Origin: a virus
Virus record (IMG/VR): IMGVR_UViG_3300045999_013278
Coordinates: 1 to 64,000 of that record
Strand: one strand, 5' to 3'
Length of the DNA: 64,000 nucleotides
This document shows, piece by piece, positions 16,864-56,900 of this stretch (the stretch's first letter is position 1; each line of letters starts with the position of its first letter). The notes under the pieces are model-generated. The model saw nothing but the letters and a program-made list of their open reading frames with translations. It made no database searches and was not told the DNA's origin. Position numbers and translations under genes: made by a program.

Positions 16864-16865
16864 AA

Positions 16866-28603: not shown

Positions 28604-28630
28604 ACCCGACGGCGTAAAATTTTTAATTAC

Positions 28631-30816: not shown

Positions 30817-30862
30817 CAAACTATGTCCACGAATTAGCTCAAGAAATAATTAGGTTAAATAA

Positions 30863-32335: not shown

Positions 32336-32338
32336 ATA

Positions 32339-32866
32339 ATGATTACTTACCAAAGACCAACATGGGATGAATATTTCCTCATGTTGGCTAAATTAGCCGC
32401 AACTCGCTCAACTTGTCTTGCTTTTCCAGTTGGTGCTGTAATTGTTAAAAATAAGCAAGTTGTAGCCACAGGTTATAATGGTTCACCGTCAGGCTCGGCT
32501 CATTGTATAACCCAAGGATACTGTTATCCAGGCTTAAATAGCTGTGATGCTAGTAAAATACTACCATCAAGGGCTGTACACGCAGAAGCAAATGCGATCG
32601 CTCAAGCCTCAAAGTATGGTATATCTACAGATGGATCAAGTATATACGTAACATTAGAACCCTGTTTATCTTGTTTGAAGTTAATTATCTCCGCTGGAAT
32701 TAAAGAAGTATTTTATGAAACTTCTTTTAATAGTGGAGAAAAAGCTTTAGTTAGAGATTCTTTTGTTAACGAAGGTTTAGTTACAATTAAGCAAGTTCAA
32801 CTTTCTGAAAATATAGCCAAAAAAGCTGCTTCTATCTTTATGGAAGGTGGGTTAAATTATGGCTAG
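32339..32866 (+). CDS. dCMP deaminase
   Basis: RPTWDEYF, RSTC, TGYNG, HAEANA, PCLSC. Confidence 0.93.
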   Translation: MITYQRPTWDEYFLMLAKLAATRSTCLAFPVGAVIVKNKQVVATGYNGSPSGSAHCITQGYCYPGLNSCDASKILPSRAVHAEANAIAQASKYGISTDGSSIYVTLEPCLSCLKLIISAGIKEVFYETSFNSGEKALVRDSFVNEGLVTIKQVQLSENIAKKAASIFMEGGLNYG

Positions 32867-33254
32867 TTGGGTGAGATGGAGTAAAAAGGAAGATGAAATA
32901 TTAGAGGAATATGTAGGATTCCACAGCCCTGAAGACATATCTCTAATATTAAAAAAACAGGGATTTAATAGAACTCCAGAAGCCGTTAGATCAAGGTTTA
33001 AGGTTTTAAAAATATCTTACGCAAGAGAGTTTGATGATCTATCTCTTTCCAGGATAGGAAAATTATTAGGAGTAAGCCGTAGCACAACATCTTCTTGGCA
33101 TAGGACAGGAAAAATAAAAGGTAAACCTTTAGGGAAGGGTAGGGAAATTGTTGTAAAATATGAAGAAGTGAGGAATTTTTTAAAGAAATATTCCCAGAAA
33201 CTTAAAACTGTTTTAGACAAAGACGGATTAAACTTTTTCTTAGGAGGAGAATAG
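32859..33254 (+). CDS. Myb-like plus HTH DNA-binding protein
   Basis: WSKKEDEIL..RTPEAVRSR; IGKLLGVSRSTTSSW. Confidence 0.65.
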   Translation: MASWVRWSKKEDEILEEYVGFHSPEDISLILKKQGFNRTPEAVRSRFKVLKISYAREFDDLSLSRIGKLLGVSRSTTSSWHRTGKIKGKPLGKGREIVVKYEEVRNFLKKYSQKLKTVLDKDGLNFFLGGE

Positions 33255-34256: not shown

Positions 34257-37200
34257 TTACCTATCATATAAACCACCTCTATTTAAGCTACCTCCAGGAC
34301 GACGCTCTTGCTTGATTGTCTCCTGGATTTTTGCTTCTAAAGCTTTTTCAAACAAGGCTTTGTTAATGTTGCCGTTGCCACCCTCGCTATTATTAATGTT
34401 CACGTTAGGCGTAATGTTAATCGTATCTCCACTTCTTCCTACGTTATTAATATTCCCTAAACCTTCACCTATCATACCGCCGCTACTGAAACTCTCCAAT
34501 TTATTACTACTGTTTAGTTGATTCCATAACTTAGTTTCTTTTGGAGTTAAAACCCGTTCACCTTCGTTAGCGATAATTAAGCGTGGGTTAAACCCACTTA
34601 TCGCCCTTTCCTTGTTTAATAAATCCCCAACCATTCCGCCTTTAGCAAAACTAGGGAGCGTAGCTGAACCAAAGTCTAATCCGCCGTCTAAACCACCTAA
34701 GCTAAAACCATCGCTAAAGTCAAATGCTCCGCTAGAACTAAATGGGATTGCGCTACTGCCTTCGAGTATTCCAAAACTACTCTCTCCAAACGCTCCAAAA
34801 ATACTATCTAGCACTCCGCCATCTTTGCTACCTGCGCCCATAATATTTTGCAAGACTAAAGCCGCTTGTTGTAGCATTGTAGCGGACACACTTAGATTAG
34901 CTCCCGCGTTATTTAAAGCGATCGCGCCCACGTCTTTAGCTTTATTGCCAAAAATAATTTCAGTTAATTTACCAAATAGTTGGTTAGACAGTTCCTTACT
35001 TGCAACAGCAGCTAAATTGCTTAAAATACTTTTTGCAATCTCGCTAAAAGCATCGACTATACTTCTTTTACTCAACTCCGTCTTTTTCTTTTCTAAGTCT
35101 CTCTGCGCTCTATCTAATTCTTTTAGTTGTTTGTTATTGCCAGAATTTTGGTATGCGTTTCTTACTTCCTGAATATTACCGGACGTATTCATTATAATGT
35201 CGCGGCGTTTCTTAGCAATCTCATCTAGGGATTTATTAATATCCTGTAAATCGCCAGCGTTTTTATTAACAGAGTCGTTCATGAAAAATCCCTTTAGGAT
35301 ATTGTCAAAATCTCCTTTAATTCCGCTAATAGCCTCGGTGAACATATTAAATTCTTTCGCAACATTGTCTAGTTTTAACTCGTTTAGCTTAAGTAAATTT
35401 TCACTAAGTACAGATATTTCTTCTGCTGAATAATTACTTGATAATCCTAGTTTAGCTATTTCGTTTTTTTCCTTCTCAAAATCCATCTTAATTTGTGATA
35501 AAAGCTGTGCTTTTTGCAATTCCTTGTCTCTAACTCCGAACAAACCCCGACCTCTTATTATCTCGGAAGAAATTGCACTACCGGATGAATTTAATTTTTC
35601 CATCCTGCCGAGTTCAATGCCTCTATTTGTAATCGGCGCGAGCTTAGTTTGGTAAGAATTTTCTGCGTCAAGGTTAGATTTTTCTTTTCCGTAATTACGG
35701 AAAGCTTTTAGTCGTTCTATTAATTTTTCTTGTGGACTAAGTAAGGCGTTACCTTGAATTTCCAATAATTGTTTCTTGTAAGCATTAGTTAGCTCGTTAG
35801 TTTTTATTGTTAATTCATTGGTTAAGCTGACTAAACTAACCATCCCATCCTTATTGTCAATCGCAAACCGTTCATTGTCTAGTTGCAATGATTTCATTTG
35901 CGAGGCTTGGATAGTTTGCGATTTAGTTAATTCAATGCCTCTATTTGTAATCGGGGCGAGCTTAGTTTGGTAAGAATTTTCTGCGTCAAGGTTAGATTTT
36001 TCTTTTCCGTAATTACGGAAAGCTTTTTGTCGTTCTATTAATTTTTCTTGTGGACTAAGTAAGGCGTTACCTTGAATTTCCAATAATTGTTTCTTGTAAG
36101 CATTAGTTAGCTCGTTAGTTTTTATTGTTAATTCATTGGTTAAGCTGACTAAACTAACCATCCCATCCTTATTGTCAATCGCAAACCGTTCATTGTCTAG
36201 TTGCAATGATTTCATTTGCGAGGCTTGGATAGTTTGCGATTTAGTTAATTCGTCGTTAGCTTGCTTAATTCGCTTAACTGTATCGGCATAATTAAAGTTA
36301 AGATCAACGCCCTCTCTTTTAACAGAATTAACATTGAGAATGGCTTTAAATTCCTTCTGAAAAGCTGCTTCACTCATGTTACCGCCCTTACCTCCGCCAT
36401 CATAATAACGTCTTTGGAGGTCTAGTAATTGTTGGTATTGGTCACGGGTTAATTCTAGTAAGCTAATATTTCTTTGAAGTGATGGAATTTTTAAAACCAA
36501 CGGATTTAGCGGGTCAATTTCCTCAAGTTTTTGAACTAACTGTAACTGTTGTTGTAGTTGTTCAATAACTTTTGATTGTTGCGATATATCCTGCTCGCTT
36601 AATCTGAAAAACTCTTTTTTGTCAAAATCTTTCATTGACGCTTTGAGGATGCTATCAATATTGGATTTTAAAAATTTCAAGCTATTTTTAGCTTCTGCAT
36701 TTTTAAAAGCTGTAGCTTTAAAACTTAGATCGTTTGTCTGGATTGCGGCTGCGGCTAATCTCGGATCATTAGGAAATCTCTTCATTGCCAGATTAAATGC
36801 GGCTTGTAAGTCCGGTTTTTGCGCGATCGCTCCATCCGTTTCTCTAACAATTTGCTCTAACAACTCAACATCTTTCTCTAATTTGCGGCGTAATTCATTA
36901 AATTGGAGACTAAACATATCCGCATTACTCATGGTAGGAGATAAACCTTTTAACACCGTTATTCTAGTCCCTAGAGTAGAATCTTTCGTACTGCTGATGT
37001 CTCCTATCGCGGTTTTTTGAGAGGACATAATAAGCCTGTAAGCCTCTAGCCTTTGTTTTAGCTCATTTTCTCTGATTTGTTCAGGATTTAGGTTGCTGTT
37101 AGTTTGATTAGTTTGATATTGTTGGGCAGCGGTGTTTAATTTAAGTCTACTAGCTTGTGTTACCACTTCCTGCATTTGGTTGGGTTGAATACTTCCGCCT

Positions 37201-40200
37201 TGCATAACAATCTGCACCAATTGTCGCGCTGTATTGCCGTACCGATTTTCTGCTTTGGGGAGGTAATTACCTAGCGTAATATCACCATCCCCTACTCCTA
37301 ATGATGCGTTAGGATTCCCCGCAAAAACGGTAGATAAAACTTTTCGGAAGGAGTCTAGCTTTTGCCCTCTACTGTTCTGTTTTAAGTATTTCTGAACAAA
37401 GACTAATTGCTCTTGTGGACTCATTTGAGACAGAGCATCTATGTTTGTACCCAGTCCTCTAGCCGTAGCGGGCATGAACTGAATTAAACCTGTTGCGTTT
37501 GTGCGTTTGTTCCTAGCAGATGGCGAAAGTGTACCACCTGTTTCATACAGCATCGTTTTAAGTAGGTCTTCAGGGTTTGCTCCTACGCTTTGAGCTATTT
37601 TAGCCACGCTTTGCAGGAACTTGGTATCTATACGTGGATCTAGCCCTGGAACAAGCGGAACTGATTGGCGTTGTTTTGTTGGCCGTTGTTGAGGCATCGG
37701 CCAATCTGCTACCCTGTTCAGCCTCTTGTTGTCTTGTGTGGTATCAACAACCTTTTTGGTTGTATCCAATTTAATCCCAGGTACTTTAAAAGTTTTACCT
37801 AACTGGGTAGTTGGGTTTATCCTTTGACCGTTGATCGTTACCTCCCAATGTAAATGCGATCCTGTGCCACGCCCAGTGCTTCCAACTTTACCTATTACAT
37901 CACCTTGTTGTACAACGTCCCCAACCTTTTTAAGTAATTCAGATAAGTGAAAAAAGCGGTTTACAACTTTTTTACCTTCTGCGGTGATGGTTTCAACTTC
38001 GACCATATTGCCCGCACCACCATTCCAACCACCTTTAGATGTGATAACCGTGCCTGTCAGTGGTGCTTTAATTGGTGTTCCTGTAGCGTCTTCAAAATCA
38101 ACACCGTTGTGCATTTTTCTAGTGCCGTCCAATGGGTCTGTACGCATTCCGTACTTAGATGTTACGCGCCCCGGCGTAGGTCTAAGCAAAGTTTGATTAA
38201 CAGTCTGTAAATTATCCAATCCGTAGAACTTTTTGACAGCCCCTAACGGATTACTAACGAACTCTTTAGCACCCTGCTCTAACTGTTGCCCAGCTTTTTC
38301 CCCAAACACCGTGCTAACCGCCGATTGAACACCGCCCGCTAAATTTTGTAACAAGCCTTGTCCGGTAGCCAGGGAAGCTAACCAGTTGGAGGTTTTTATT
38401 CCCATATCAGCGATCGCAGTCCCCACGCGATCAAAGCCGTTCTCAAAAGACTTAACTAAATCTGCAAACTTAGTACCAAGACCTTCTATCCATGAGTTGC
38501 TAGTTTTACTTAAGTCTTTAATACTATCTTCAGCTTTTTTAGTTGCGTCTACAACACTGTTAGATAAGTTATTTATATTCTTATTAATTTCATCAACCGT
38601 CCTGTTTACGTTTTTAAGACTGAGATTAAAGTTATCGGCAATACTAGAATCTATCGGGATAATTTTTCCTGGTAAACTCCGTTGTAGTTCTATAGCTTGT
38701 AGCTGAATATCTTGGACGTTATTCTGGTAGTCAATCCTCTGTTTTCTTGCTTCTAGTTGTTGTTTCTCTATTTCGGTTGTTTGGGAAATTACATTAATAA
38801 TTCCCTCAATAAACTGAGTGTAGATATTGTCCCCAGCACCAATTAAAGCCTCTCTAAGTTTATTCTGTACTTTAGAGTTTTCAAAGGTCTTTTGTGCTTT
38901 CTCAAATTCAATACCCACAGCTTGAGATTCTCGAACGGCTGCGCGATAATAGTCGGTGACTTGCTTTGTTTGTTGGTAGAGGCTTTGGATTAAGTTATAT
39001 TTCTGCTCTGCAATTTGTTGTTGCATATCAACAGTTTGGATTTGCATTTCCTTAACTTTTATAAAGCCACTTAAAATCTCTTTTTCTTTACTTCCATCAA
39101 TACTTCTTTCTTGTGCAGCCTTTAAGGTGTCTATACCGCTTCTTTTATTTAAATTAAGTGTGCCTAAGACTCTATCTAAATCATTAACTTCCAATTGAGC
39201 GGACATCTCTTGGATTTGTTTTAAATTATCGGCAATTTTACCAGTCAGAGTGGCTTGAGTTTTTAAGTTGTTCGTATATTCCAGTTGCCCTGGTAAAACG
39301 TCCCCACTGCTGCCAAGGTTAAATAAATTAGTTTTCTCTAAACTTAATGCTGTATCTCTATATTGTCTTAGATCGTTAAACTTAGCTTCTAAGTTCCTTA
39401 TTTCAATTGCAAATTTTTGCATTTCTGTTAAGGAATTTTTAATAGCCTTAGTCATCTTGTCTTGTTCTTGAATAACTGTAGCTAAATCTTGTTCAGTTAC
39501 CTTAATTATTTTATTAATGTCGTCAATTTCACTTTGGTAAAGTTTGGGATTTTTCTTTAGTTCTTCCCAATACTCCAAATAAGTTTTTAAAGTTTCTACT
39601 TGTTTGTCTAAATTAGCTTTAGTTCCGCCAAACAATTCTAAGGGCTTTTCTCTCACCCCGCTTATTCTCTTTTCCCATTCTTGCAGAGATCTCAACGCTT
39701 CACTATTGCCGGGATCGTTGGCAATAATCGCCCGACGTTCCATTTTAATATTATCCAAAGATTTGTCTAGGAATTGAATGTCTTGGATAGCGTTTTTAAT
39801 AGCGGGAGAGTTACTATCTTTCAAAATATCGAAAGTGTTTTGTTGCCCAATAGTTGTTTGTTTGGCACTATCCTCCATTTGTTTTATTAGTTTTTTTGTA
39901 TCGTTATCAAATGGGTTAAGCGTAAATCCTTCTCTAAATGCTGAAAAGTTATCACGGCTAACTTTAGAGGATGGATTTAATAATTTTCTTTGTTCATTAA
40001 TAGACTGAGTAACGTTTCTAGTCTGTTCGCCAATTGCGCCGCTGCTATCCTTGAAATTCATCATTGTTTCATCAATAGCTTTCATCGCCATTGATAAAAC
40101 AAACATCTGAGCGGCTAAAGTTGCAATACTTTGACTCATTCCCAGCAATGCACCCTTAGCCCCTCCCGCAGAGAATAAAATTCCTTTTAAATACGTCGCA

Positions 40201-43200
40201 AACATTAACCAAACAGGACTTCCTAATTTAATTAAGGTAATCAGTAAGACACTTTTTAAGAGTTGGAGATTCTTAGTTACTAAATCTATACCAGACGCAA
40301 AAACACTTAAAGAAAAGTTTCTGAAAGGCAGTAAAGTTTTACCAATACTTTCCTGTAACTCAATTAAGGAATTATTGAATTTATTAGTTATCGCCACTGA
40401 AGAATTAACGGCATCTCCTACACCTGATGAAGTTTGCGCTTTTAATTGTTGAGCAAATTTTGGCAAAAAGTCCTCAGCTAAAACCCTGCCTGTACTTAAT
40501 AATTGGTTCATGGACTGGGTGGTTGTTCCGTAAGCATTTGCGGCGATTTGCGAAGCGTTGGGGATTGCTTCAGCGAGTTGTTGTCTTAATTCTTCTTGAG
40601 ATACAACCGTTTTTCCAGACATTTGCTCAAGCGCGGTAAAAGTCCTTTGCTGCTTGTCTAAATCTAAACCATAGACAGCCGAAGCTTGAGTGACTGCGCT
40701 AACGATCTGGCGAGATTGATAGCCTTCTATGGGAGTATCCTTAGTTGCCTGGAAGAATTTACTGCCACTTTCTAAAGTTTGGCTTAAGTCAACGTTGAGT
40801 CTTTTTGCTTCCGATCTTAAAAATGCAATATTTTTAGCACCCTCTGAAATGCTTCCAGAAGTGAACTTAATCCGTCTCTCTAAATTCTCAAAGTTAGCAG
40901 CGACTTCTATGCTTGCGGGAGCTAAATCTAAGATAATTTTCCCTACGGCCAACAAAGCTAGGACTTTAACAACATTACCTATAGAAGATTTAACAAAGTC
41001 CATCATCTCGCCAAATTTCTGGACTTTACTCATTCCCTCTACAAAACTATCAAAAGCCACCTTAGCCTGGATGAACCCTTCCTTAATTTTTTCTGGCATC
41101 TTAAGGAAATCTACAAATAATTCCTTAGCTGCAACAATACCGTTAGCTAACCCCTCGCCTAATGCTGCCGATACGTTAGGATTGGCGATTTCCTTAAGGA
41201 AATCTAAATAACCCTTAAATCTTTCCTTAGCTTCCTTAAATCCTGGGATACTTCCTAATCCTTTACTAAAGCCTCGGCTTAATCTTTCTTTATCTTTTTC
41301 TACGTCAGATGTAATTGTGCCATTTTCTACAGATTCTTTAATTCTGTTTATTTGTCTAATGAGCGATGGAATTATGCCATTGTTACCACCTTCTAAGAAT
41401 TGCAGACCCTTAGTGAAACCTTCACCTACGTATTTGCCCAACATTATGCCAAGTCTTACAAATGACTGGGAATTTTTCTTTACGCCATTTTCTATCGTAG
41501 ATTGTGGAACTTGGGGAATACCATTTGGTAGGAATGGGGGTAGTTGAGGGTTCACACCTCCGACGGTCGTGTTTGGAATCTTAAAAGATATAGAAGGTTG
41601 TGGAACTTGGGGAATTGGCGGTACGTAAGAATTTGGTAGGATTAGGTGACGTGAAGGATTTTGATTACTATTGGGAAGAATCAATGATTGATAAGAAGGC
41701 TGTGGAATATTTTTAGGAAGAATTGAATTGTATCCTCCTTGCGCCCATCCCATTCTGCCAGATGCAGCTAAAGTAGTTAGTGGGTTTGGCGAACTCCAGC
41801 CCCTTCCTCTTGGAAGAATTAGAGAAAAGTTAGTTACCGCATTTCCTGCACTTAAAAGCACATTTTTAAATGACTCTTGCGCTTCTGTTAACCGTACTAC
41901 ATGAGGCTGTTTTTCAGGAGGCAGTATTAGAGGCAGACCGCTTCCGGATCTTTGTCCTGGGAGTATTAAGTTATTGCCATTGTTAGAGTTGTTGTTATTA
42001 GGGAGAATTAATCCTTGGTAGGGTTTAAGAGGATTTGCCAACGGAATAGAACCGCTATATGGATTTAGCTGACTAGATGATGTAATTATTGGCGAAACGT
42101 TATTTTGTTTTTTATATTTAGCGTAGCTATCTGGAAGGATTACGGGAGACAGCCCCAAAGACCTATTTATCTCATCCGTAGAAACTACAGAAGATAAATT
42201 TTTAGAGATTTGTTTAGCAAAAGTTTTCCTTAACTCTTCTGTAGAAATGTTAGGGTTGTATAGTTTAGAGAACTCACCCGTTGGTGCTGAAAATACGCTA
42301 GTCGTTCGGGGAGAATTTAATCTTGTTGAGTCAACGCCAGAAGAAGGTTGGAGTAGTCCATTAATAGGAAGATTTGCTAAACTGCCTTTATTTATGTGCG
42401 GAAGTTTATTATATCCTGACGGTAAAACTAATCCGTTTTCTGCGCCTTTCCTTATCTCATCTACCCTTGAGGTAATTATTTTCTTAGCGTTATTTAAGGA
42501 TTCGTCCGCACCCACCCCCATAGCATTGCCTATATTTTGACCAGTTCTAATAGCCCATCTTGAGGGTGATTTAATTTCTAATTTTTCTTCTACTGTATCT
42601 ATTACTGTCTCTGCTAATTTTTCAGAAGATGTACGTAAATCACCTATGCTATTTTCTACACCTTTACTTACGCCCGCTCCTATATTTTCGCCAATTCTAA
42701 CTCCTCCATGCAACGCACTTATTCTCGCTGCTTTATTTTGAACAGAAGTTATTTGTGATAAAGAATTGCTTAGTTGTGAACTCTCTCTGCTTTTTGCAAA
42801 ATTAGGATCTATTCCTGCACTATTTCTTAATTTTGTTATATCAGCTTTGGCTTTATCTCCATACTGCTTAATCGCCGCAGATAACTCAATAACTGGAGCG
42901 AAGTTACCAGTTGTTTCTGCATCTTTTAACAGGGATCTTAGTTTAGCGAAATTAGCATTAAATTTAGCGGCTAATTCTTGCGCTGATTTTACCGCAAGCT
43001 TGGCTTTTTCTGACACCTCAATATCTTTACCGGATGTAGATTGAGTAACTGGGTTAACTCTAGTTACTTGATATCCGTTGGGGGTTGCGCTTACGGATGT
43101 AGATTGAGTAACTGGGTTAACTTTAATTACTTGATATCCCTTGGGGATTGTGCTTACTGGAGTTGGAGTATAAGATTTTTCAACAGTATAAGTTGGTAAA

Positions 43201-46200
43201 ATGGCCGTTGGTTTAAATTGTGGTAAATCCCCAACAGTTTCTTGCAGTAACGATTTGCCCGAATAACCTATCGGTATTTCTTTAGCAGGATTTAGCGGTA
43301 TAAGTAACGAAGGATCTATTTGCCTAGCTTCGGGTATGGGCAGGGCTTTTTTGTACCCTTTCTTTATACTGTTCCTTATTTTGTTAGCATCTAATATTCC
43401 CCACAATGAAATGTCTATTAAAGCTCTTTGAATAGTTGTCGCCTCATCCTCAGCTTTCTGCTTGGCAGAGGGCATAGTTGTGGACATACCTAAATCAATT
43501 GCTGATATTTTCCCAGGATCTACTTTGTTTGTTACTGGATCGATTTTATAGTCTTTAAAAAATACATTGGCGGAAGCTAGATCGTTATGAACAACACCCA
43601 TGTCTTGCATAGCCCTACCCAAACTTCCGACATAACGATAGAACTGTGAAAATATTTCATTAAATTGCTTTATATCCTTTCGGATTTGTCTGTCTAATAA
43701 TTTGTTGGCGTTTTCTAAATCCTCTATAGCTTTTTTTATTTCTTTCCTTCTCTCAGGGTTTTTTTCGTTTTCTAATTCATTTTCTAATTTCGCTATCCTT
43801 GGTTTTGTCTCTTTCTTTAACTTTGCTTGTTCTTCTTTCGAGGCTCTTATGGGTGCTGCATAGTCCTCCATAATTTTCTTCAAGTCCCTCCCTTCTATTT
43901 TTTCTACAATCATAGATTCTTTTTCGTTCGCCGCATAAAGTAACGGGGCGTATCTGCCCTGTAGTCTTTCATAAGCTTTAACTTCCTGTTTTGATGCTAT
44001 TTTTTTTGCACCTTCAGGATCTAAATCAGTTTTGTAAACCAATTTATCGGTTATCAAAGCCATAGCTCCAGACCATCCATGACCTACAGCTTTAATTTCT
44101 TTAGCGTCCGGCATCATCGGAGCTATAGTTTTAAGCATTTTATTAAACCCTAAAATTGACGCTGGGTGTTCTCTCATAGCATCCGAAATCGGTAGTTTTT
44201 TTAAGTTTAAATTTTCTTCAAAGTATTCCGATAAATTGCGAAACTCAGGACTTTGCTCAGAAGCATACTTTGGTATTTTTTCTGACCCTGGAATTGTCGG
44301 TAAATACTCAATTTTATCTAAAAAGTCAGGCGATATATTTCCTTTGGTTTTAATAAATTCTTCTTGTAACGACAGAATTACTTTAAATCCTTGAACGATT
44401 TTTTTTCCGTACTCTTCAAACTGTTTTTGTGATTCAAACCAAGGAATTGTTGCTATAGACAAATCTCGCTTGCGTTCCGCAACTTTGCCAACGTTCAGTC
44501 CGCCAGCCCACCAACCCTTATCAGGGATTGCTTTATTTTCTTTAAAAGTTTGAATAGACTCATTAATGCCACTAACTTCATCCACATACCTCATAAATCC
44601 GGGATCGGTAACATTATCCGGGAACTTAATCTTTTCCATAACGTCGGTTTTGAGATTTTCGGTAGGCAAATAATCAATCTTGTCTAAAAATTTTGGCGAT
44701 ATATTGCCGTGAGTTCTAACAAACTCTTCTTGCAGTTTTGCAACAATTTCAAGCCCTTTAATTATTTCTCTTCCGTATTCCTCGAACTGTTTTTGTGATT
44801 TAAACCAAGGGATAGTTTTTTGTGAAAGTTCTTGGTTTCTTGCAGCAACATCTTCTCTTTTCAAACCACCTGCGAAGTAAGCTCCTGGTACAACCGTTCT
44901 AGTTTTAAAAGATTCAATAGATTGATTGATAATCGATGCCTCTTGTTTATATCTTTGATATCCAGGATGAGATTCATCATTGGGCAAATCTTTCAATTGC
45001 CCTGTAGGACGTTCTGTTTTTTCTGCATTTGATAGCATTAATGTGCCAGCGTCCACAGCCTGACCTCGAAGTATGGTTGCCATTGATCTCACCTGTTCCG
45101 GCATCCGTTCGTTGGATAATTGTCCAAAAAGGTATTTAGAATCAAATAAGTTTTTTATTACACCTTGACTGTATTGCCCCTTAGAGGCTAAATCCTTAGC
45201 GTGCATCGTAGAAATGACTACTTGGTGAACCTGCAACATGAGTCTTTGCAAGTCAGACATAGTATCTCTTGATGTCTTGTCTGTAGGTAAACTACTACCT
45301 ACAGTGTCATTAAATTTTTCGACAAAACCAGGAGATCGAAATAAGTGATGTGTCGCATGAACGTTTGCCCCTGACGATCTTAGACCTGAATCATCAAGGA
45401 TGTTCATTGCACTGCTCGGATTATAAACACCTATTTTAAACGGGAAAGTTAAGGGATCTTTTTCTAAAATTGCAGATGCAAAACCTTTAGGTGTTGCATT
45501 TGATAAATTTGAAAAAGGATAAGCCATAGCTAGTGCTTTTGTCTTAGTCCCTTCATACTCCGCCGCTTTTGCATACCTGTAAGCACTTGCGCCACCAAGA
45601 GAGAAGCTGATAGCCGAAGCGTCGTTTCCTTGTTCTCTAGCCAGCCTTGTGTGAGCTAAAGCTTGAGCGGCGGCTACGTCCGATCCTAGAGGATTTAGCG
45701 AATAGGCGATCTGTCTTACCGCATTCTTTATAGTTGGAGATAACGATCCCATCCCAGGGAGAAGTTTTTTTATTAATACGTCATCAGTCCACTTATCTAT
45801 TTCAGCAGTCCTTTTGCTAACATCTGTGTCCAAATTTTCCACTGGTAACAATTTTATATTCTTCCCAACAATAGGTTCTAAGGAAGTAGCGAGTGCGCGG
45901 CCACCCTGTCCGAACTTATCCTCAGCACCCCCGATTACAGAAACCACCTTTTGTCCAGGCTCTAGTATAGGGAAGGTTGCTTTTCTTGCTTGGTAGTGAG
46001 ATTCGGACAGCTTGCTTGTATGATAGGACTGCATCCCCTGTATAAAATTAAGAATTGGTTGAACTTCTTTCATCAAAGGGAGAATAACTTTGTTCGACAA
46101 GTCAGTGGGTTGAGCTTCTTTTATGATTGTCGGAATAAATCTCCTCTTGTGTTCATCCAACGACAAGCTTGATTTTTTGGAAGAAATTGTTTCAAACTTT

Positions 46201-47024
46201 TTCTTTAATTCAGGCTCTTCGGACAAAATTCGGTCAACAGCTTCAATAGAGGATGGAGTGTTTTTATTAGATTTATACTCTTCCTCAAGATTTGCGATTA
46301 CTTGTAAATCTCCTAGCCTATTAAGCTGTTTTTGCATTTTAGTTCTTTTTCCGGCAGCAAATTTAGCTTTATCGAAACTACCGCTACTGATTAATTCTGC
46401 AAAAAAAGTTTCATAGACCTGGGACTTTCCTATAATTTCTTCATCAACTAGCCTAAATCCATCTTGAATTTTTTTAGCAAACTGTTTTGTACTTTTCCCT
46501 GTTAATTTAATAGACATCGATCTACCGATTTCTTCAGTAAATCCAACTGCAATATTATCAATACCTTTACCTATGGCATCAGCTACTTTTCCTACAGCCC
46601 TAAACGGCGACATGGCTATATTCGCAGCCATATTCACAGGTGACATAATTACACCCTTTACGACATCTCCTACAGTATTGTTTTTATTTCCACTGCCGTT
46701 ATTGTTAACGCTAACATTAGCTGTAACCTTTCTTTGCCCTAATTTATCTAATTCCTTATTTAAGTTAGTTAATTCCCCGTCATCAACAAAAACTTTTAAA
46801 GGATTGTTTTTAAAATAAGTTTGTGTTTGCTTAAAGTGAGTTACCTTTAAGTCAAAATGTTTATTAAGGTTTTTTAGCGAGTCATCATTAACGCCTATGG
46901 TTAAATTAAGATCTTTCTCTAGAAATTGAGCTTGTTTAATAGCCTCGACCCTAGCCTTTTTTATATCTTCCATTAGCTTGGAGTAATCACCAACTAACTC
47001 AACAACTAATTGTGGTAATTCCAT
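34257..47024 (-). CDS. Giant multidomain tape measure protein
   Basis: Downstream of tail chaperone; tape-measure motif VSQEELRQQLAEAIP; LEIKSPSR; C-terminal FAKGG..NEGERVL; embedded hydrolase, kinase, M23 and SLT motifs. Confidence 0.9.
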   Translation of the reverse strand: MELPQLVVELVGDYSKLMEDIKKARVEAIKQAQFLEKDLNLTIGVNDDSLKNLNKHFDLKVTHFKQTQTYFKNNPLKVFVDDGELTNLNKELDKLGQRKVTANVSVNNNGSGNKNNTVGDVVKGVIMSPVNMAANIAMSPFRAVGKVADAIGKGIDNIAVGFTEEIGRSMSIKLTGKSTKQFAKKIQDGFRLVDEEIIGKSQVYETFFAELISSGSFDKAKFAAGKRTKMQKQLNRLGDLQVIANLEEEYKSNKNTPSSIEAVDRILSEEPELKKKFETISSKKSSLSLDEHKRRFIPTIIKEAQPTDLSNKVILPLMKEVQPILNFIQGMQSYHTSKLSESHYQARKATFPILEPGQKVVSVIGGAEDKFGQGGRALATSLEPIVGKNIKLLPVENLDTDVSKRTAEIDKWTDDVLIKKLLPGMGSLSPTIKNAVRQIAYSLNPLGSDVAAAQALAHTRLAREQGNDASAISFSLGGASAYRYAKAAEYEGTKTKALAMAYPFSNLSNATPKGFASAILEKDPLTFPFKIGVYNPSSAMNILDDSGLRSSGANVHATHHLFRSPGFVEKFNDTVGSSLPTDKTSRDTMSDLQRLMLQVHQVVISTMHAKDLASKGQYSQGVIKNLFDSKYLFGQLSNERMPEQVRSMATILRGQAVDAGTLMLSNAEKTERPTGQLKDLPNDESHPGYQRYKQEASIINQSIESFKTRTVVPGAYFAGGLKREDVAARNQELSQKTIPWFKSQKQFEEYGREIIKGLEIVAKLQEEFVRTHGNISPKFLDKIDYLPTENLKTDVMEKIKFPDNVTDPGFMRYVDEVSGINESIQTFKENKAIPDKGWWAGGLNVGKVAERKRDLSIATIPWFESQKQFEEYGKKIVQGFKVILSLQEEFIKTKGNISPDFLDKIEYLPTIPGSEKIPKYASEQSPEFRNLSEYFEENLNLKKLPISDAMREHPASILGFNKMLKTIAPMMPDAKEIKAVGHGWSGAMALITDKLVYKTDLDPEGAKKIASKQEVKAYERLQGRYAPLLYAANEKESMIVEKIEGRDLKKIMEDYAAPIRASKEEQAKLKKETKPRIAKLENELENEKNPERRKEIKKAIEDLENANKLLDRQIRKDIKQFNEIFSQFYRYVGSLGRAMQDMGVVHNDLASANVFFKDYKIDPVTNKVDPGKISAIDLGMSTTMPSAKQKAEDEATTIQRALIDISLWGILDANKIRNSIKKGYKKALPIPEARQIDPSLLIPLNPAKEIPIGYSGKSLLQETVGDLPQFKPTAILPTYTVEKSYTPTPVSTIPKGYQVIKVNPVTQSTSVSATPNGYQVTRVNPVTQSTSGKDIEVSEKAKLAVKSAQELAAKFNANFAKLRSLLKDAETTGNFAPVIELSAAIKQYGDKAKADITKLRNSAGIDPNFAKSRESSQLSNSLSQITSVQNKAARISALHGGVRIGENIGAGVSKGVENSIGDLRTSSEKLAETVIDTVEEKLEIKSPSRWAIRTGQNIGNAMGVGADESLNNAKKIITSRVDEIRKGAENGLVLPSGYNKLPHINKGSLANLPINGLLQPSSGVDSTRLNSPRTTSVFSAPTGEFSKLYNPNISTEELRKTFAKQISKNLSSVVSTDEINRSLGLSPVILPDSYAKYKKQNNVSPIITSSSQLNPYSGSIPLANPLKPYQGLILPNNNNSNNGNNLILPGQRSGSGLPLILPPEKQPHVVRLTEAQESFKNVLLSAGNAVTNFSLILPRGRGWSSPNPLTTLAASGRMGWAQGGYNSILPKNIPQPSYQSLILPNSNQNPSRHLILPNSYVPPIPQVPQPSISFKIPNTTVGGVNPQLPPFLPNGIPQVPQSTIENGVKKNSQSFVRLGIMLGKYVGEGFTKGLQFLEGGNNGIIPSLIRQINRIKESVENGTITSDVEKDKERLSRGFSKGLGSIPGFKEAKERFKGYLDFLKEIANPNVSAALGEGLANGIVAAKELFVDFLKMPEKIKEGFIQAKVAFDSFVEGMSKVQKFGEMMDFVKSSIGNVVKVLALLAVGKIILDLAPASIEVAANFENLERRIKFTSGSISEGAKNIAFLRSEAKRLNVDLSQTLESGSKFFQATKDTPIEGYQSRQIVSAVTQASAVYGLDLDKQQRTFTALEQMSGKTVVSQEELRQQLAEAIPNASQIAANAYGTTTQSMNQLLSTGRVLAEDFLPKFAQQLKAQTSSGVGDAVNSSVAITNKFNNSLIELQESIGKTLLPFRNFSLSVFASGIDLVTKNLQLLKSVLLITLIKLGSPVWLMFATYLKGILFSAGGAKGALLGMSQSIATLAAQMFVLSMAMKAIDETMMNFKDSSGAIGEQTRNVTQSINEQRKLLNPSSKVSRDNFSAFREGFTLNPFDNDTKKLIKQMEDSAKQTTIGQQNTFDILKDSNSPAIKNAIQDIQFLDKSLDNIKMERRAIIANDPGNSEALRSLQEWEKRISGVREKPLELFGGTKANLDKQVETLKTYLEYWEELKKNPKLYQSEIDDINKIIKVTEQDLATVIQEQDKMTKAIKNSLTEMQKFAIEIRNLEAKFNDLRQYRDTALSLEKTNLFNLGSSGDVLPGQLEYTNNLKTQATLTGKIADNLKQIQEMSAQLEVNDLDRVLGTLNLNKRSGIDTLKAAQERSIDGSKEKEILSGFIKVKEMQIQTVDMQQQIAEQKYNLIQSLYQQTKQVTDYYRAAVRESQAVGIEFEKAQKTFENSKVQNKLREALIGAGDNIYTQFIEGIINVISQTTEIEKQQLEARKQRIDYQNNVQDIQLQAIELQRSLPGKIIPIDSSIADNFNLSLKNVNRTVDEINKNINNLSNSVVDATKKAEDSIKDLSKTSNSWIEGLGTKFADLVKSFENGFDRVGTAIADMGIKTSNWLASLATGQGLLQNLAGGVQSAVSTVFGEKAGQQLEQGAKEFVSNPLGAVKKFYGLDNLQTVNQTLLRPTPGRVTSKYGMRTDPLDGTRKMHNGVDFEDATGTPIKAPLTGTVITSKGGWNGGAGNMVEVETITAEGKKVVNRFFHLSELLKKVGDVVQQGDVIGKVGSTGRGTGSHLHWEVTINGQRINPTTQLGKTFKVPGIKLDTTKKVVDTTQDNKRLNRVADWPMPQQRPTKQRQSVPLVPGLDPRIDTKFLQSVAKIAQSVGANPEDLLKTMLYETGGTLSPSARNKRTNATGLIQFMPATARGLGTNIDALSQMSPQEQLVFVQKYLKQNSRGQKLDSFRKVLSTVFAGNPNASLGVGDGDITLGNYLPKAENRYGNTARQLVQIVMQGGSIQPNQMQEVVTQASRLKLNTAAQQYQTNQTNSNLNPEQIRENELKQRLEAYRLIMSSQKTAIGDISSTKDSTLGTRITVLKGLSPTMSNADMFSLQFNELRRKLEKDVELLEQIVRETDGAIAQKPDLQAAFNLAMKRFPNDPRLAAAAIQTNDLSFKATAFKNAEAKNSLKFLKSNIDSILKASMKDFDKKEFFRLSEQDISQQSKVIEQLQQQLQLVQKLEEIDPLNPLVLKIPSLQRNISLLELTRDQYQQLLDLQRRYYDGGGKGGNMSEAAFQKEFKAILNVNSVKREGVDLNFNYADTVKRIKQANDELTKSQTIQASQMKSLQLDNERFAIDNKDGMVSLVSLTNELTIKTNELTNAYKKQLLEIQGNALLSPQEKLIERQKAFRNYGKEKSNLDAENSYQTKLAPITNRGIELTKSQTIQASQMKSLQLDNERFAIDNKDGMVSLVSLTNELTIKTNELTNAYKKQLLEIQGNALLSPQEKLIERLKAFRNYGKEKSNLDAENSYQTKLAPITNRGIELGRMEKLNSSGSAISSEIIRGRGLFGVRDKELQKAQLLSQIKMDFEKEKNEIAKLGLSSNYSAEEISVLSENLLKLNELKLDNVAKEFNMFTEAISGIKGDFDNILKGFFMNDSVNKNAGDLQDINKSLDEIAKKRRDIIMNTSGNIQEVRNAYQNSGNNKQLKELDRAQRDLEKKKTELSKRSIVDAFSEIAKSILSNLAAVASKELSNQLFGKLTEIIFGNKAKDVGAIALNNAGANLSVSATMLQQAALVLQNIMGAGSKDGGVLDSIFGAFGESSFGILEGSSAIPFSSSGAFDFSDGFSLGGLDGGLDFGSATLPSFAKGGMVGDLLNKERAISGFNPRLIIANEGERVLTPKETKLWNQLNSSNKLESFSSGGMIGEGLGNINNVGRSGDTINITPNVNINNSEGGNGNINKALFEKALEAKIQETIKQERRPGGSLNRGGLYDR
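35613..36251. repeat. Near-perfect 318-bp in-frame tandem duplication
   Basis: ttcaatgcctctatttgtaatcgg starts at 35613 and 35931; about 2 mismatches seen. Confidence 0.92.
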
Positions 47025-51405: not shown

Positions 51406-53817
51406 TTAAACAGCCCTACGCGCAACTCTTAATTTAGCGCAACGGGTTTGTTGTCCTGCTGGGGAAGCTAAAGCTGCATCCAAGTCAATAACGCCAGTTT
51501 GTTCACGGCTAATCCAGATAAAAGATTCTCCCATGTTAAATGGAGTTGTACCAGAAGCGCGAACTTCCATTGGTAATGCAATACCGCGACCGACCGCACC
51601 GTAGCTAAATACGAAACAGTCTTCAGTAACGGTTGCACCCGCGCCAAAAGTAGTTGTGTTTACGGTTGGATCAGATCCACCTGGCGCACCAACACCCCAT
51701 GTATTGCCTGAGAAAATTTCAAAGCCGCAATATTGACCGACGTAACCTGAGCTTTGTCCGATTTCAATTCCAGAAGCCGCACGGAGAACGTTAGAAATAT
51801 TCTGGCGTTGTTCTTCAGTTACAGGAGAGTAAAGCTTGCCTAAAGATTTCTTTAGATTGTCTAAGGATTTAGGGGGAACTGTCAAAATGTAACTGTTGTT
51901 AGGCAAAGTTGGCCATTGGTCGGCGTAAAGCTGGGAATAAACAGAAGACAGGAAGTCTTCAGTTAAAGTACCGTCATCTGTTGCGGCAACGTTAGCCGGA
52001 ACGGACGTTACTTCACCCTTATCGTTGTAATAAACTTTAGTTGTCTTAAAGTATTCCTTACGCACCATCAAATCTTCAAATTTGAAGTAGTGCTGCATTA
52101 ATACTTTATCCAGAACTGCCATTAAGTCAATTAATGACGTAGCTTCAGTAAATTCTGGAATAAATACAGGGCGGTTGCCTACTCCTGTGCTCAAACCTAG
52201 ACCCCATTGAGCAATAGTTAATGGGACTGTGGTAATTTCCAAGCCTTGAGAATCCGTAGAAGTACCACGAGAATAATTAATGCTGGTATAGGTGTCGGTT
52301 GTGCTGATCAGGAAGTCGTTAACATCTGTAGGATCGGCTAAATTATTAGCGCGAGGAATCAGGATGGATTTATTGGGCGCAGATGTTGAGTCATATATAG
52401 TGGAAGCAAACTGCCACCAAATATTATTGGAGTTGTGAGTTTCTCTCATTAAAGCTGAGAGAACATCCAAGAAAATTGCGCCAATGCTGCCGCTCGATCC
52501 GATAGTTGGCCCGGCCGCACGACCAGAAAGAAATCCGCCACCCTCAGAAGATTTAAAGTAATTTTCTAATTCTTTAACCAAAGGAGAGTGTTTCCAATTA
52601 CGCAAACCCTTAGTGGCTTGCTCTTCACGGAAGTGATCGTGCATGAATCTAGCTAAAACATTATGATTCCGTTGGACTGCAACCATTCCATCGTGGCGAA
52701 CTTCTGTAGGTTCGGCTTTGGAACTGTTAAATAAGTCAATAAATTCTTTAGCTAAACCTTGCATGGCAAACTTTGGGGTATTTTTAACGGCGGGGACGAC
52801 TTCAGATCCGGGGCGGCCAATTAACTGCGAAATATCTTTAAGGGTATCAGCTAATTGCTGGGCTTTTAATCTCTCGGCGCGTTCTTGGTCTAATTCTTGT
52901 TTTAAGCTTGAATTTTCTGCTAAGGCTTGAGATTTTTCTTGTTCTAGAACTAAATTCATTTCCCGAACTGGAGTTACTGTTTCAAGAATTAATTTTCTAA
53001 CGGCTTCTAAATCTAAGCCTTGAGGCTTCAACTCTGCTACGGCTACAATCTCCCTTTCCTCTAGCGCAGGAACGGGGTCGGGAGTTGAAGATTTAACTTC
53101 TTCTAAAGGTGTTAGTGGAGGCATATCTTTACCTTTAATTTGAATAATTTTAGGCTCATCTTTTCCATTGCGCTGTAGGCTTTTACCTACTCCTACCGTC
53201 GGGTCGGCGGGTACGCTTGCATGGGATATCTCAAATATTTCCCAATTTTTACTTATCCTGACTGGGTAATAACCCCTGTCTGCGAGTCCGTATTTTTCAA
53301 TAAGAGCGGCGGCTTCTTTCTTGGGAAGTTCGGTGTATTCATCCTGTACTTGGTACATGAACGAAACACCTTTACGAGTACCCTTTTGGACTAAGTTATA
53401 TAAGTCTCTACCCTCTGCGTTGTCGTCGTACTGGACATCGCAAATAGCCTTACCTTGGGAGAAATTTACCCCCATTACTAGGCCGCGTTGCAAATCCCAA
53501 TTATGATTCCAAAGAATTGGGCAGACACCTTCTGTAACCCTTTGAGTATTGCAACAGCCTGGCTCATGGGAAAGAACTTCGTAATATCTCTCATCTTCCC
53601 AGTAATCGTATCTAAGGATTGGATATTCGGAAGAAAAAACAAAACTTGCGGTTAAGTTTCCTACTACTTCTTCCCCACTCTCCTCTTCCTCCATATCCTT
53701 ATTTAAATTTAAAGATTTTGAGAAGTTGGGAAGAATTTCCAAATTAAAATATCGCGTAGCTTGACCTACGGCAATTTCACCATCCTTAAGTTCTAACCTT
53801 GCATTTTTCTCTGACAC
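51406..53817 (-). CDS. HK97-type prohead protease fused to scaffold and major capsid protein
   Basis: FSSEYP, LWNHN, VSFMY, EISHASVPADPTVGVG; coiled-coil linker; C-terminal region placed as capsid by size and context. Confidence 0.82.
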   Translation of the reverse strand: MSEKNARLELKDGEIAVGQATRYFNLEILPNFSKSLNLNKDMEEEESGEEVVGNLTASFVFSSEYPILRYDYWEDERYYEVLSHEPGCCNTQRVTEGVCPILWNHNWDLQRGLVMGVNFSQGKAICDVQYDDNAEGRDLYNLVQKGTRKGVSFMYQVQDEYTELPKKEAAALIEKYGLADRGYYPVRISKNWEIFEISHASVPADPTVGVGKSLQRNGKDEPKIIQIKGKDMPPLTPLEEVKSSTPDPVPALEEREIVAVAELKPQGLDLEAVRKLILETVTPVREMNLVLEQEKSQALAENSSLKQELDQERAERLKAQQLADTLKDISQLIGRPGSEVVPAVKNTPKFAMQGLAKEFIDLFNSSKAEPTEVRHDGMVAVQRNHNVLARFMHDHFREEQATKGLRNWKHSPLVKELENYFKSSEGGGFLSGRAAGPTIGSSGSIGAIFLDVLSALMRETHNSNNIWWQFASTIYDSTSAPNKSILIPRANNLADPTDVNDFLISTTDTYTSINYSRGTSTDSQGLEITTVPLTIAQWGLGLSTGVGNRPVFIPEFTEATSLIDLMAVLDKVLMQHYFKFEDLMVRKEYFKTTKVYYNDKGEVTSVPANVAATDDGTLTEDFLSSVYSQLYADQWPTLPNNSYILTVPPKSLDNLKKSLGKLYSPVTEEQRQNISNVLRAASGIEIGQSSGYVGQYCGFEIFSGNTWGVGAPGGSDPTVNTTTFGAGATVTEDCFVFSYGAVGRGIALPMEVRASGTTPFNMGESFIWISREQTGVIDLDAALASPAGQQTRCAKLRVARRAV

Positions 53818-53912: not shown

Positions 53913-56900
53913 ATGTTTAACGAAGTTTATGCTCCGTCCGCAAAACCTGTGTTTTACCGCACTTATTCAAGAAGTAAAAAAGAGACATGGCAAGATGTTT
54001 GTGACCGGACAATTACGGCATTAATTTCTCTGGGAAAATTAACTAAGACTGAGGGTGACTTAATTAGGCGATCGCAGGAAGAATTTAAAGTATTAAGTAG
54101 TGGAAGATGGCTGTGGTGTGGTGGTACAGATTGGTTAAAAAAGCCAGAAAACGTTTACGGTGCTTATAATTGCTCATCCACAAACATTACAGACTGGGAA
54201 GCATTAAGCTTAATGATGAATTTGGCTATGCAGGGATGCGGGACTGGCGCAGTGTTGGAAGATAAATATATTAAAAATCTTCCTATTATAAGGAATAATT
54301 TAAGCGTAGAGATTGTTAATTTACCTGGCACTGTAAAAAAAGAAAACAGGCACGATGACACTATCGTTAGCGGCGCGCGCGGACAAGTTAACATTTTTGT
54401 TGGAGATAGCCGTAAGGGTTGGGTAGACTCTTACCTTACACTTCTAGAGTTGTCTTCAAGGGAAGATTTAGCGAAAAACGTTAAAGTTTTCGTTTGCTTA
54501 GGTGCGGTAAGAAGTAGTGGGGAAAAACTTAAAGGCTTTGGCGGAAAAGCTAATCCCATAGCTTTAGCTGGGATGTATGGAAAATTAGCTAAGATTTTAA
54601 ACGGGGCTATAGGTCGCCAACTTACCGCTTTAGAGTTATGCAAGTTAATTGATGAGGCTAGTGTTACAATTGTAGCCGGAAATATAAGAAGGTCGGCGGG
54701 CATGAGACAGGGTTCGCCAGAAGATATAGAGTTTGCGACCGCTAAAGATAACTTGTGGCAACAAGACAATGAGGGTAACTGGAAAATAGATCCTGACAAA
54801 GATTGCTTAAGAATGGCTAATCATACGTTAGTTTATCACCGTCGCCCAACTTTAGAAGAGGTCAAAAAAAGTGTGCAAAAACAATTCCACAGCGGTGAAG
54901 GTGCAATTCAATGGGCTGGCGAAGCGGTAGCTAGAGCTAACGTGGATTTACTCTCTAATAAGGATTTAAAAAATAAGTTTTTAGACTTATACAATAAGTC
55001 CTTAAATGAAGCATTAAATTTTTTAGCTAAGTTAGGGCTGTTGAGTATTGCTGAAGCGGAAGAAAGGATGTCTAGGTACGCTACCAACCCTTGTTTTCGT
55101 GGGGATATGAAAATATTAACTAAAGATGGTTACAGAGCATTCGAGTCGTTGGACGGTCAAGATGTAGAGATAATTAACGCAGAGGGCAATGTTTCTCTAT
55201 CTCATATATGGTGTTCAGGTGAAAAGGAAACCGTAAGGGTAGGAATGGGGGCTTATGGAAGTATTCACTGCACTCCAGATCACTCTTTTTTAAATATTGA
55301 TGGCAAAAGAGTTGACGCATCTGAATTAAGACCGGGTGACAGATTAATGCCATTCTTAAAAGTGCCAGAGCATAAGAATAAAATATTCGTTTGTTTAGGA
55401 TTTGTCCAAGGTGATGGTCAATTATCTGATTTATCTGATTTGAAAGGCGACAAAAAAGGGCAACTAGGTGTTGCTGTCAACATAGGTAAAAAGGATCAAG
55501 AAATCCTAGAATTTTTCCAAGAAACGGAAGGTTTGAAATGCAAGAAACATGGCGAAAGGCGTATTTATGTTAACGGACTGAATGAGTTAATTGACAAATA
55601 CGACTTTTCTCTTTACACCCTTCCATTTCGCGCACTCCCATCCACTTATAAAGGCTGGGACTTAGACATAAAAGCATCGTTCTTGTCTGGACTTTATTCA
55701 GCTAACGGCAGTGTTCTAAAAAACGGCAGAGTGACCTTAAAGACGACCTGTAGAGAAATGGGCGAACAGGTTGTTGATTCTTTAAAAGCAGACTTTGGCA
55801 TAGAAGCTTATATTACCATCAACCGACCGTCAACCGTATCGTTTCCTAACGGTATTTACCAATGTAGAGAAAGTTACGACGTAAATATTCAGCAATACAA
55901 AGGGAGACTTTCATTCTTCAACCAAATCAACTTTATTCATTCGTACAAGATTGATAAATTTGCCAAAACTCTCTTGGCAACCTCTCCCTCAATATCGGTA
56001 GTAGAAAAACAAGGGATTGTAAAAGTTTATGATTTTTCTGAACCAATAACGCACTGGGGTGTAGTAGAGGGCTTTGTCGCGCATAATTGCGGAGAAATTG
56101 TGGGTAACAATTTTTTCTGCGATCTCGCTGAAGTACACCTAAACACGCTAGATGGAAAAGACTTAAATAGTTTAAGAGACTCATTTAGGGCTGCGGGTTT
56201 AATTGCAGCCGTACTATTAAATGACAAATTCCCTGACGAGAGATATCAAAAATCTAGGGAGTTAGACCCTATTGTTGGCGTTAGCTTTACTGGCTTATTT
56301 GACTTTTTCGTTAATTTATTTGGGGAAAGTTGGTTGCGCTGGTGGGAAGGCGGCAGGGAGGAATACTCAGACAGAGACTTTATCACATCAAAGGATTTAG
56401 AAAATTGGATAGAAACATTCCCAGATGAGGTAGTTGAAATTATTAACGATTGGAATAAAAGCCAAGGGAAATTTGCTATAAAACACCCCGGCGTTTGCAA
56501 CGGACTACTTTTTAAAGCCTTGGAAGAATTTTACCTGACGCTTTTTAAAGATGAAGCCCATAAAGCAGTTTGGGAATACTGTCATGCACATTCGCTTAAA
56601 CGCCCCAATAGATGTACTACGGTGCAACCAAGCGGGACTAAGAGCCTCTTAACTGGCGCGTCTCCTGGCTGGCATCCTCCAAAAGCTGCTAGATTTATCC
56701 GTCGGATTACTTTTGGCAGAGACGACGCAGTAGCTTTAGCTTGTATGGACTATGGCTACGGTATTATTCCTTCCCAATCTTGTAAAGATGCTGAGGGTAA
56801 TTTATTAAACGATCCATTTGACCCAAGAGTTACGGAATGGTTGGTAGAAATTCCCACAAAAACTAGCTGGGCGGATAACATCGGGGAAGATGTAGATATA

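Follow-up and report, generated by a model that had tools for sequence, protein, structure and literature searches.

Enzymes within tail-length rulers have been described in bacteriophage T5, where the tape measure protein pb2 contains a muralytic domain that is stored in the tail lumen and freed at infection (PMC10038345). In this system, the tape measure protein is described as a trimer that sits in the lumen in a metastable state, its C-terminus located at the tip; it is cleaved in assembly and expelled on receptor binding, and its enzymatic (muralytic) part may have to refold (PMC10038345). The protein considered here is a giant tape measure protein of 4255 aa (P0001), encoded by a single open reading frame (ORF) at 34257..47024 on the (-) strand of the IMG/VR virus record IMGVR_UViG_3300045999_013278. 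Like other tape measures, it has embedded enzyme domains, here M23 and SLT-like, in its C-terminal half; its N-terminal part additionally contains a protein-kinase-fold domain of the Bud32/PRPK-RIO type at aa 977-1229 (43338..44096, (-)). The window, by which we mean the whole stretch of DNA analysed, comprises 64,000 nucleotides, positions 1 to 64,000 of a record of 72,697 bp whose completeness is rated 65%.

Tape measures of mycobacteriophages carry Rpf-like motifs, and T7 gp0.7 is a phage kinase able to act on host proteins; unlike what is proposed for the domain described here, gp0.7 is made post-infection and is absent from the virion, and the analogy is functional only. What was known before were tape measures with cell-wall hydrolases acting in the periplasm, which work on peptidoglycan and are free of cofactors, whereas a kinase or ATPase needs ATP and hence a cytoplasm; what would be new in the present protein is an embedded enzyme of an ATP-dependent type. 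Similar in concept is the virion RNA polymerase of phage N4, described as a large enzyme that passes through the tail channel and is active at time zero (PMC13434306), although that enzyme is packaged in the capsid of a podovirus, outside any tape measure. Stand-alone phage kinases, such as the RIO-like kinase of Synechococcus phage S-CBWM1 and the Ser/Thr kinases of Bacillus phages, are the nearest predicted viral folds (E 5e-5 to 1e-3), but these are separate proteins of 210-460 aa, and none of the 50 rows listed from the predicted viral structures is a tape measure by name. In the open-access literature and bioRxiv no paper was found on a kinase within a tape measure, and in the two co-occurrences of the terms that were checked the kinase and the tape measure were separate genes; this agrees with the original prediction for this locus, which knew of no characterised tape measure with such cargo.

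The original prediction had placed a protein-kinase-like domain at 43380-44100, embedded in the tape measure protein, and the profile alignment gives nearly the same span. The motifs then listed, from the Gly-rich loop to IDLG, are all present in the stated order, with their coordinates in the 4255-aa ORF verified by a script. On the (-) strand, these are the Gly-rich loop VGHGWSG (aa 980-986, 44067..44087), the beta3 lysine K998 within LVYK (44031..44033), the alphaC glutamate E1014 within QEVKAY (43983..43985), the hinge MIVEKIEG (aa 1038-1045, 43890..43913), the catalytic loop HNDLASAN (aa 1146-1153, 43566..43589) with H1146, D1148 and N1153, and IDLG (aa 1176-1179, 43488..43499), in which D1177 is the DFG-equivalent metal-binding aspartate. 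K998 aligns to the invariant lysine of Bud32-like proteins and IDLG to their IDFG. Between the hinge and alphaE, the models and alignments place a charged helical-hairpin insert of 68 aa (aa 1053-1120, 43665..43868, (-)), which bears out the earlier mention of a coiled-coil insert of roughly 70 aa; the model shows it as a long helical hairpin, its length varies between 36 and 137 aa among family members, and Bud32 has no counterpart there. Bud32 is a kinase of minimal size, about 200-230 aa, whose C-lobe is short and has no activation segment; here the C-lobe beyond IDLG is about 50 aa long and the core can be aligned to Bud32-like proteins over its whole length, but the hairpin is inserted in it. 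By fold and motifs the domain belongs to the protein-kinase-like (PKL) fold superfamily, with the Gly loop, Lys, Glu, HxDxxxxN and metal Asp all present, and the region of aa ~977-1229 is a genuine and apparently active protein-kinase-fold domain, probably of a minimal type, with all its ATP-binding and phosphotransfer residues intact.

When a 311-aa stretch (aa 940-1250 of the 4255-aa protein) was used as a single-sequence query, Pfam returned only sub-threshold matches, all of which belonged to the kinase clan (Kdo, E 0.0065; APH, 0.0086; Pkinase, 0.027; Choline_kinase, 0.13). The gathering cutoffs were unmet by the window sequence for Kdo (16.4 vs 21.3 bits), APH (16.3 vs 23.2) and Pkinase (14.3 vs 31.7), as was that of RIO1 (PF01163), and the Pfam scan of the whole protein and of eight chunks gave no match above cutoff within aa 1-2000. 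The same stretch matched the Bud32 model TIGR03724 of NCBIfam (E 1.5e-7), at 31.1 bits against a curated equivalog cutoff of 125 bits. In a single-sequence search of Protein Data Bank (PDB) chains, the top match was a tail fibre, aligned through the coiled-coil insert, with kinases at E 0.1 or worse. This query was replaced by a 12-sequence alignment of the domain region (A1), whose profile retrieved kinase-fold proteins in all 60 rows listed from the PDB sequences, among them the MSK1 C-terminal kinase (E 2.8e-5), plant Bud32 (1e-4), Rio2 (8e-4) and archaeal Kae1-Bud32 (about 0.01). Scanned one by one, members of A1 matched Bud32 models of NCBIfam in 11 of 12 cases (best 9.2e-11) and Kdo kinase in 7 of 12, and in Pfam they matched APH (10/12), RIO1 (8/12, best 1.6e-5), Kdo (8/12) and Pkinase (7/12). 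Language-model features indicated the same kinase families. In PHROGs, all 12 members matched phrog_4098, whose function is unassigned, and three matched the 'kinase' phrog_3297; PADLOC returned generic kinase similarity (PD-T4-6 and Stk2, 6/12 each) together with coiled-coil noise.

Searching the A1 profile against 1.84 billion representative proteins gave 88 matches at E<=1e-3. The family itself accounts for the 23 of these at E<=1e-15, nearly all of them giant with the domain at about aa 800-1100; four members of this group are short (377-1925 aa) and are probably fragments. The other 65 are mostly Bud32/RIO-like proteins of ~200 aa, reaching down to E 2.1e-9, and nine of ten sampled from these ~200-aa matches have RIO1, Pkinase, Kdo or APH domains in Pfam. 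An alignment of 25 of them (A2) shows the Bud32 signature GAEA...K...HGDLTTSN...IDFGLS. When A1 and A2 were compared by hhalign, they aligned over 170 columns from the Gly loop to the C-terminal GY, skipping the insert, with a probability of 99.5% and an E-value (2.9e-22) that is inflated because A2 was picked from A1's own search; this selection has no bearing on the NCBIfam and PDB results.

AlphaFold2, run on A1 with an input alignment of 12 rows only, gave a model with a mean predicted local distance difference test score (pLDDT) of 93.8 and a predicted template modelling score (pTM) of 0.88. In region numbering, the N-lobe of this bilobal model has strands at 40-43, 48-52 and 56-61, helix C at 73-82, within which E1014 lies, and further strands at 90-94 and 98-102. 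Two very long antiparallel helices follow at 109-147 and 151-202, which represent the insert fused with helices D and E, and downstream of these lie the catalytic and metal-binding loops and a pair of C-terminal helices. A Foldseek search with the model returned 62 PDB matches with E<=1e-3; human PRPK (2.5e-5), Rio2 and Rio1 ranked highest, with APH(2''), Kae1-Bud32 and WaaP behind them, and all 50 rows listed are kinase-fold proteins. The kinase fold put forward for this region is thus supported by the profile alignment and the structural model alike.

The closest families are therefore Bud32/PRPK first, followed by WaaP, RIO and APH, and the domain is not to be filed under Pkinase PF00069, Kdo PF06293, APH PF01636 or RIO1 PF01163 alone. 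Bud32/PRPK (TP53RK), the kinase/ATPase subunit of KEOPS, has been described in archaea and eukaryotes (PMC3814370, PMC8565320), whereas the domain described here sits inside a structural protein of a phage, a virus that is probably one of bacteria. Identity between the two is 18%, and no Kae1/TsaD-like or Cgi121-like family was found in Pfam scans of 46 window ORFs and the tape measure, which did not extend to the final 8.7 kb of the record, beyond the window. Because the curated cutoff is missed, a large insert is present and there is no Kae1/Cgi121 context, the domain is most like Bud32/PRPK yet outside that family. It differs from the RIO kinases Rio1 and Rio2 in having no RIO-specific N-terminal winged helix, flexible loop or ribosome context, and from WaaP/Kdo kinase and APH in being without their extra substrate-binding C-terminal helices, as judged by the length of the C-lobe.

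The protein that carries this domain is a tape measure, as identified by its TMP_3 domain, its gene context and its hydrophobic segments. TMP_3 (PF20155) lies at aa 2039-2227 (40344..40910, (-)) with a Pfam score of 70.4 bits against a cutoff of 41, between hydrophobic segments at aa 2018-2041 and 2255-2277, and is present in all ten relatives scanned by Pfam. The same strand carries, upstream of the tape measure gene, a fusion of head protease and capsid protein along with small ORFs of head-tail and tail type, and this tail-module context, together with the TMP_3 score, upholds the earlier assignment of the kinase-like domain to a tape measure. No sheath-sized gene was found between the capsid and tape measure genes, and because this interval is without one, the 4255-aa protein corresponds to gpH in a large siphovirus.

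A word-based search found 29 giant proteins of 2999-5797 aa whose kinase region is 34-100% identical to that of the window protein; full-length members of the family span 2974-5797 aa. The domain is encoded on 27 distinct IMG/VR contigs, the fusion to a tape measure occurs in about 23 clusters at 50% identity, and fusion to a lambda-gpH-type tape measure is seen in about 30 diverged phage lineages. Among 34 members aligned to the profile, 33 of which are complete, G983, G986 and E1014 are kept in all 34, K998 in 33, and H1146, D1148, N1153 and D1177 in each of the 33 complete members; the exception at K998 is the most divergent member, where an alignment problem may be the explanation. Conservation, taken as mean pairwise identity per 50-aa block across nine diverged full-length proteins, peaks at aa 351-500 (0.49-0.53), within an alpha/beta-hydrolase-like domain, and in the kinase domain at aa 951-1050 and 1101-1250 (0.38-0.52), and falls to 0.26-0.36 in TMP_3, 0.22 in the kinase insert and about 0.1 over most of the C-terminal half. 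The kinase-fold and hydrolase-like domains are the best conserved parts of the protein, above TMP_3, which is likely to come as a surprise to phage specialists, and the kinase-fold domain is conserved under evident selection. By BLAST, aa ~40-1300 and TMP_3 are common to the family and the remainder differs; the kinase-fold domain therefore belongs to the core of these tape measures rather than being a sporadic addition, and forms part of a conserved N-terminal module of ~1300 aa that includes the hydrolase-like domain.

In the relative P0013, whose kinase region shares 55% identity with that of the window protein, a further kinase domain of another type occupies aa 1450-1607 in P0013's own numbering, within the variable region before TMP_3. 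This domain passes the Pkinase cutoff (50.3 vs 31.7 bits) with its GSGSFSSV, HGDFNNGN and IDF motifs intact. At the matching place the window protein has an ILP-rich, low-complexity stretch.

Since ATP is required and the periplasm is without ATP, the kinase-fold domain would be active only in a cytoplasm, either that of the producer or that of the new host. By analogy with T5, the N-terminal module would ride in the tail lumen in an extended and metastable form, for which the helical hairpin is the part that would be best suited. At infection, the C-terminal half, with its M23 and SLT-like domains and hydrophobic segments, would exit first and open the envelope, and the N-terminal module, which would have to clear the tube for the DNA, would be the last out, following the muralytic and channel-forming parts and preceding the DNA. 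The module would then refold in the host cytoplasm, where ATP is available, and there hydrolyse ATP or phosphorylate itself, a host protein or a phage protein before phage gene expression. Both delivery into the host and protein-kinase rather than ATPase chemistry are what we infer by analogy, and that the domain is a delivered enzyme, the doubt over protein phosphorylation versus ATP hydrolysis included, appears to us an evenly balanced proposition.

A fuller version, which we offer tentatively, is that the N-terminal module as a whole would serve as a time-zero cytoplasmic effector, in which a kinase/ATPase resembling Bud32 is paired with a serine hydrolase and, in some lineages, with another kinase, and which would be threaded ahead of the DNA through the channel of the tape measure itself and refold in the host. 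Host ATP would then be used to modify host or phage targets before transcription, for example in disarming defence or in priming the incoming genome end. Should this be true, entry into the cell would extend from the C-terminal part to the whole tape measure, and the tails of siphophages would serve to inject ATP-dependent enzymes. If delivered and active, the domain would be the first kinase/ATPase injected as a tail component, and would lengthen the list of time-zero phage enzymes. The findings suggest that a phage may bring ATP-using enzymes into the cell along with its DNA, and an ATP-dependent, conserved domain offers an experimental handle on the destination of the tape measure during infection.

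Several points weigh against a delivered kinase. The window sequence falls below every curated family cutoff, the structural model was built on the shallow alignment given above, the hhalign E-value is inflated, and tblastn matched the kinase domain to none of 50,697 cultured phage records. By alignment and model, the domain is without an activation segment and without substrate-binding C-lobe helices. Its relatives Bud32 and RIO are described as acting as ATPases rather than protein kinases (PMC3814370, PMC5815136), and in Rio proteins hydrolysis governs their release (PMC5815136); given that these are the nearest relatives, the domain is as likely to hydrolyse ATP, or to be a switch that depends on it, as to phosphorylate host proteins. 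In T5 and lambda, pb2 and the lambda tape measure protein, respectively, are reported to be proteolytically processed during tail assembly, and the arrival of the T5 protein at the inner membrane is left to be determined in the same account (PMC10038345). As the C-terminus of the T5 protein sits at the tip, the N-terminal part would exit last. The tail lumen is given as ~4 nm (PMC9022992), which three folded kinase domains would exceed, and unfolding and refolding therefore have to be assumed. The hairpin insert and the paired hydrolase domain both bear on the question of how a tube of 4 nm can hold globular enzymes.

In a rival account, the domain works in the producer cell, as an ATP-driven switch or timer for tape measure solubility, chaperone loading or tail-tube polymerisation, or as a late-infection kinase, and has no function after ejection, being perhaps trimmed off. 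In the producer cell ATP is certainly present, and tape measure proteins are described as being processed in assembly (PMC10038345). Bud32 and RIO are described as switches whose ATPase activity governs release from large assemblies (PMC3814370, PMC5815136), the domain is confined to very long tape measures (full-length members 2974-5797 aa), and its conservation, which equals or exceeds that of the TMP_3 core, fits a role tied to the tape measure rather than swappable cargo. On the other hand, the enzyme domains known from tape measures, such as the muralytic domain of T5 pb2, target the recipient cell (PMC10038345), the second and different kinase in the variable region of P0013 resembles cargo more, and the co-conserved hydrolase-like domain has no obvious assembly task. 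We regard a role confined to the producer cell as unlikely, albeit one to be taken seriously; if true, the construction of long non-contractile tails would for the first time be found to have a step driven by ATP.

It is improbable that the domain is instead a phosphotransferase for a lipid, sugar or other small molecule, like WaaP/Kdo kinase or APH, which together with the esterase-like domain would act on an envelope precursor or metabolite at the cytoplasmic face of the inner membrane. WaaP/Kdo and APH do appear among the matches, but Bud32/PRPK outranks them in both the sequence and the structure comparisons, and the C-terminal part aligns to the short C-lobe of Bud32 without the extra substrate-binding helices of APH and WaaP. 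Equally doubtful is a pseudo-enzyme or structural role, in which the kinase fold would be a nucleotide- or protein-binding scaffold with no catalysis. Many kinase-fold proteins are pseudokinases, and the failure of the window sequence to reach any curated family cutoff would be in keeping with such a role; pseudokinases, however, are typically without one or more catalytic residues, whereas here the Lys, Glu, catalytic Asp, Asn and metal Asp are kept in nearly all members, at identities down to ~35%, as their surroundings drift. Chance motif resemblance in a low-complexity coiled-coil protein, or an ORF that is an assembly chimera, which the huge size of the protein, its charged helices, spurious weak matches to coiled-coil families and the tail fibre as top PDB match might suggest, is rejected, as profile, fold and conservation converge on a kinase fold and the identical fusion recurs across the IMG/VR contigs and sequence clusters counted above.

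The other conserved part of the N-terminal module, the alpha/beta-hydrolase-like domain, was recognised by conservation and modelling at aa 320-625 (45150..46067, (-)), with invariant S475 (in SFSLGG), D523 and H556/H560 and a Ser-Asp-His order of S475/D523/H556. Its AlphaFold model (pLDDT 82.5, pTM 0.83) places S475 exactly at a strand-helix junction, that is, a nucleophile elbow, and Foldseek returned weak cutinase and esterase matches (best E 4.9e-3). Pfam found nothing in this region, its profile gave only two chance-level rows against PDB sequences, and Atlas gave a weak lead, DUF676 at 0.88. A search for stand-alone homologues yielded four fragments on short contigs, and tblastn of the domain against the cultured phage records named above gave no match. 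Given the alpha/beta sheet and the order of the triad, the domain is probably a serine hydrolase. The pair H556xxxH560 was also considered as a Kae1-like metal site and rejected, since the order of the motifs does not fit that of Kae1 and the fold is that of an alpha/beta-hydrolase. Directly upstream of the kinase domain, at aa ~690-925 (44250..44957, (-), from the translation), are two tandem repeats of ~115 aa (GYxxY...AGGL...IPWF...EF), a conserved domain without an assigned family, in which Pfam found nothing and of which P0013 and P0014 have one copy.

In the C-terminal half, Peptidase_M23 is found at aa 2970-3071 (37812..38117, (-); 88.9 bits, E 2.6e-25 in Pfam), and there is a weak Pfam match to SLT at aa 3166-3216. 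In the relatives P0017, P0018 and P0020, a class A beta-lactamase-like domain (PF13354) and SLT are present instead of M23, with PF13354 at E 3.9e-24 in one scanned tape measure relative, and one member matches the putative metallopeptidase family DUF6782. At aa ~3640-3900 (window ~35300-36100, (-)), a segment of about 130 aa (LTKSQTIQASQMKSLQLDNERF...) is duplicated in tandem, almost exactly, in the window protein. Near-identical copies of the protein on other contigs range from 4020 to 4538 aa, and because of this span and the duplication, the comparison suggests that tail length varies via repeat copy number. By the rule of thumb that tail length is about 1.5 A per tape measure residue, 4255 aa would correspond to a tail of roughly 640 nm. 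Tails of > 800 nm are on record (PMC9022992).

Upstream of the tape measure gene, the protease-capsid fusion (51406-53817, (-); 803 aa) consists of a prohead protease/scaffold-like N-terminal part and a major capsid part, and was named by PHROG as 'major head and protease protein' (E 7.7e-27). Among cultured phages, those of Cylindrospermopsis come closest to it, at 31.7% identity, a likeness that may hint at a cyanophage-like lineage, and no more. The lambda-like tail tip genes of the window, Phage_tail_L, a JAB-domain gpK-like gene and a gpJ-like protein at 14629-16863, lie at about 11757-18271, split from the tape measure by a block of opposite-strand genes. This block (24021-33254, (+)) contains replication and nucleotide-metabolism genes, including a 1169-aa DUF3854 protein, RecJ and a thymidylate-synthase-like fusion, and in the Cylindrospermopsis phage Cr-LKS4, a distant relative, the tail module is scattered likewise. 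Also among the replication genes of the window are DNA polymerase III alpha, a helicase and an intein-bearing class II ribonucleotide reductase. From the contig scan, the sole relative is encoded on one 10.6-kb contig of a Methylomonas metagenome-assembled genome; Methylomonas as the host was rejected as too weak, with one relative on a contig of this size.

Further features were noted in the course of these scans. At aa 1629-1797 of the tape measure (window ~41630-42140, (-)), a Pro/Asn/Ser-rich stretch contains eight 'ILP' tripeptides in about 170 residues, and the whole 4255-aa protein has ten, compared with about 1.2 expected from its composition and one to three in relatives. The class II (B12-dependent) ribonucleotide reductase at 53913-57296 (+) has a LAGLIDADG homing endonuclease domain inside its intein. 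A TnpB-like gene at 22652-23965 (-) contains OrfB_IS605 and a Cas12f1-like TNB domain, and an IS200-type Y1 transposase is among the window ORFs; together, these two represent an IS200/IS605 element within the phage genome.

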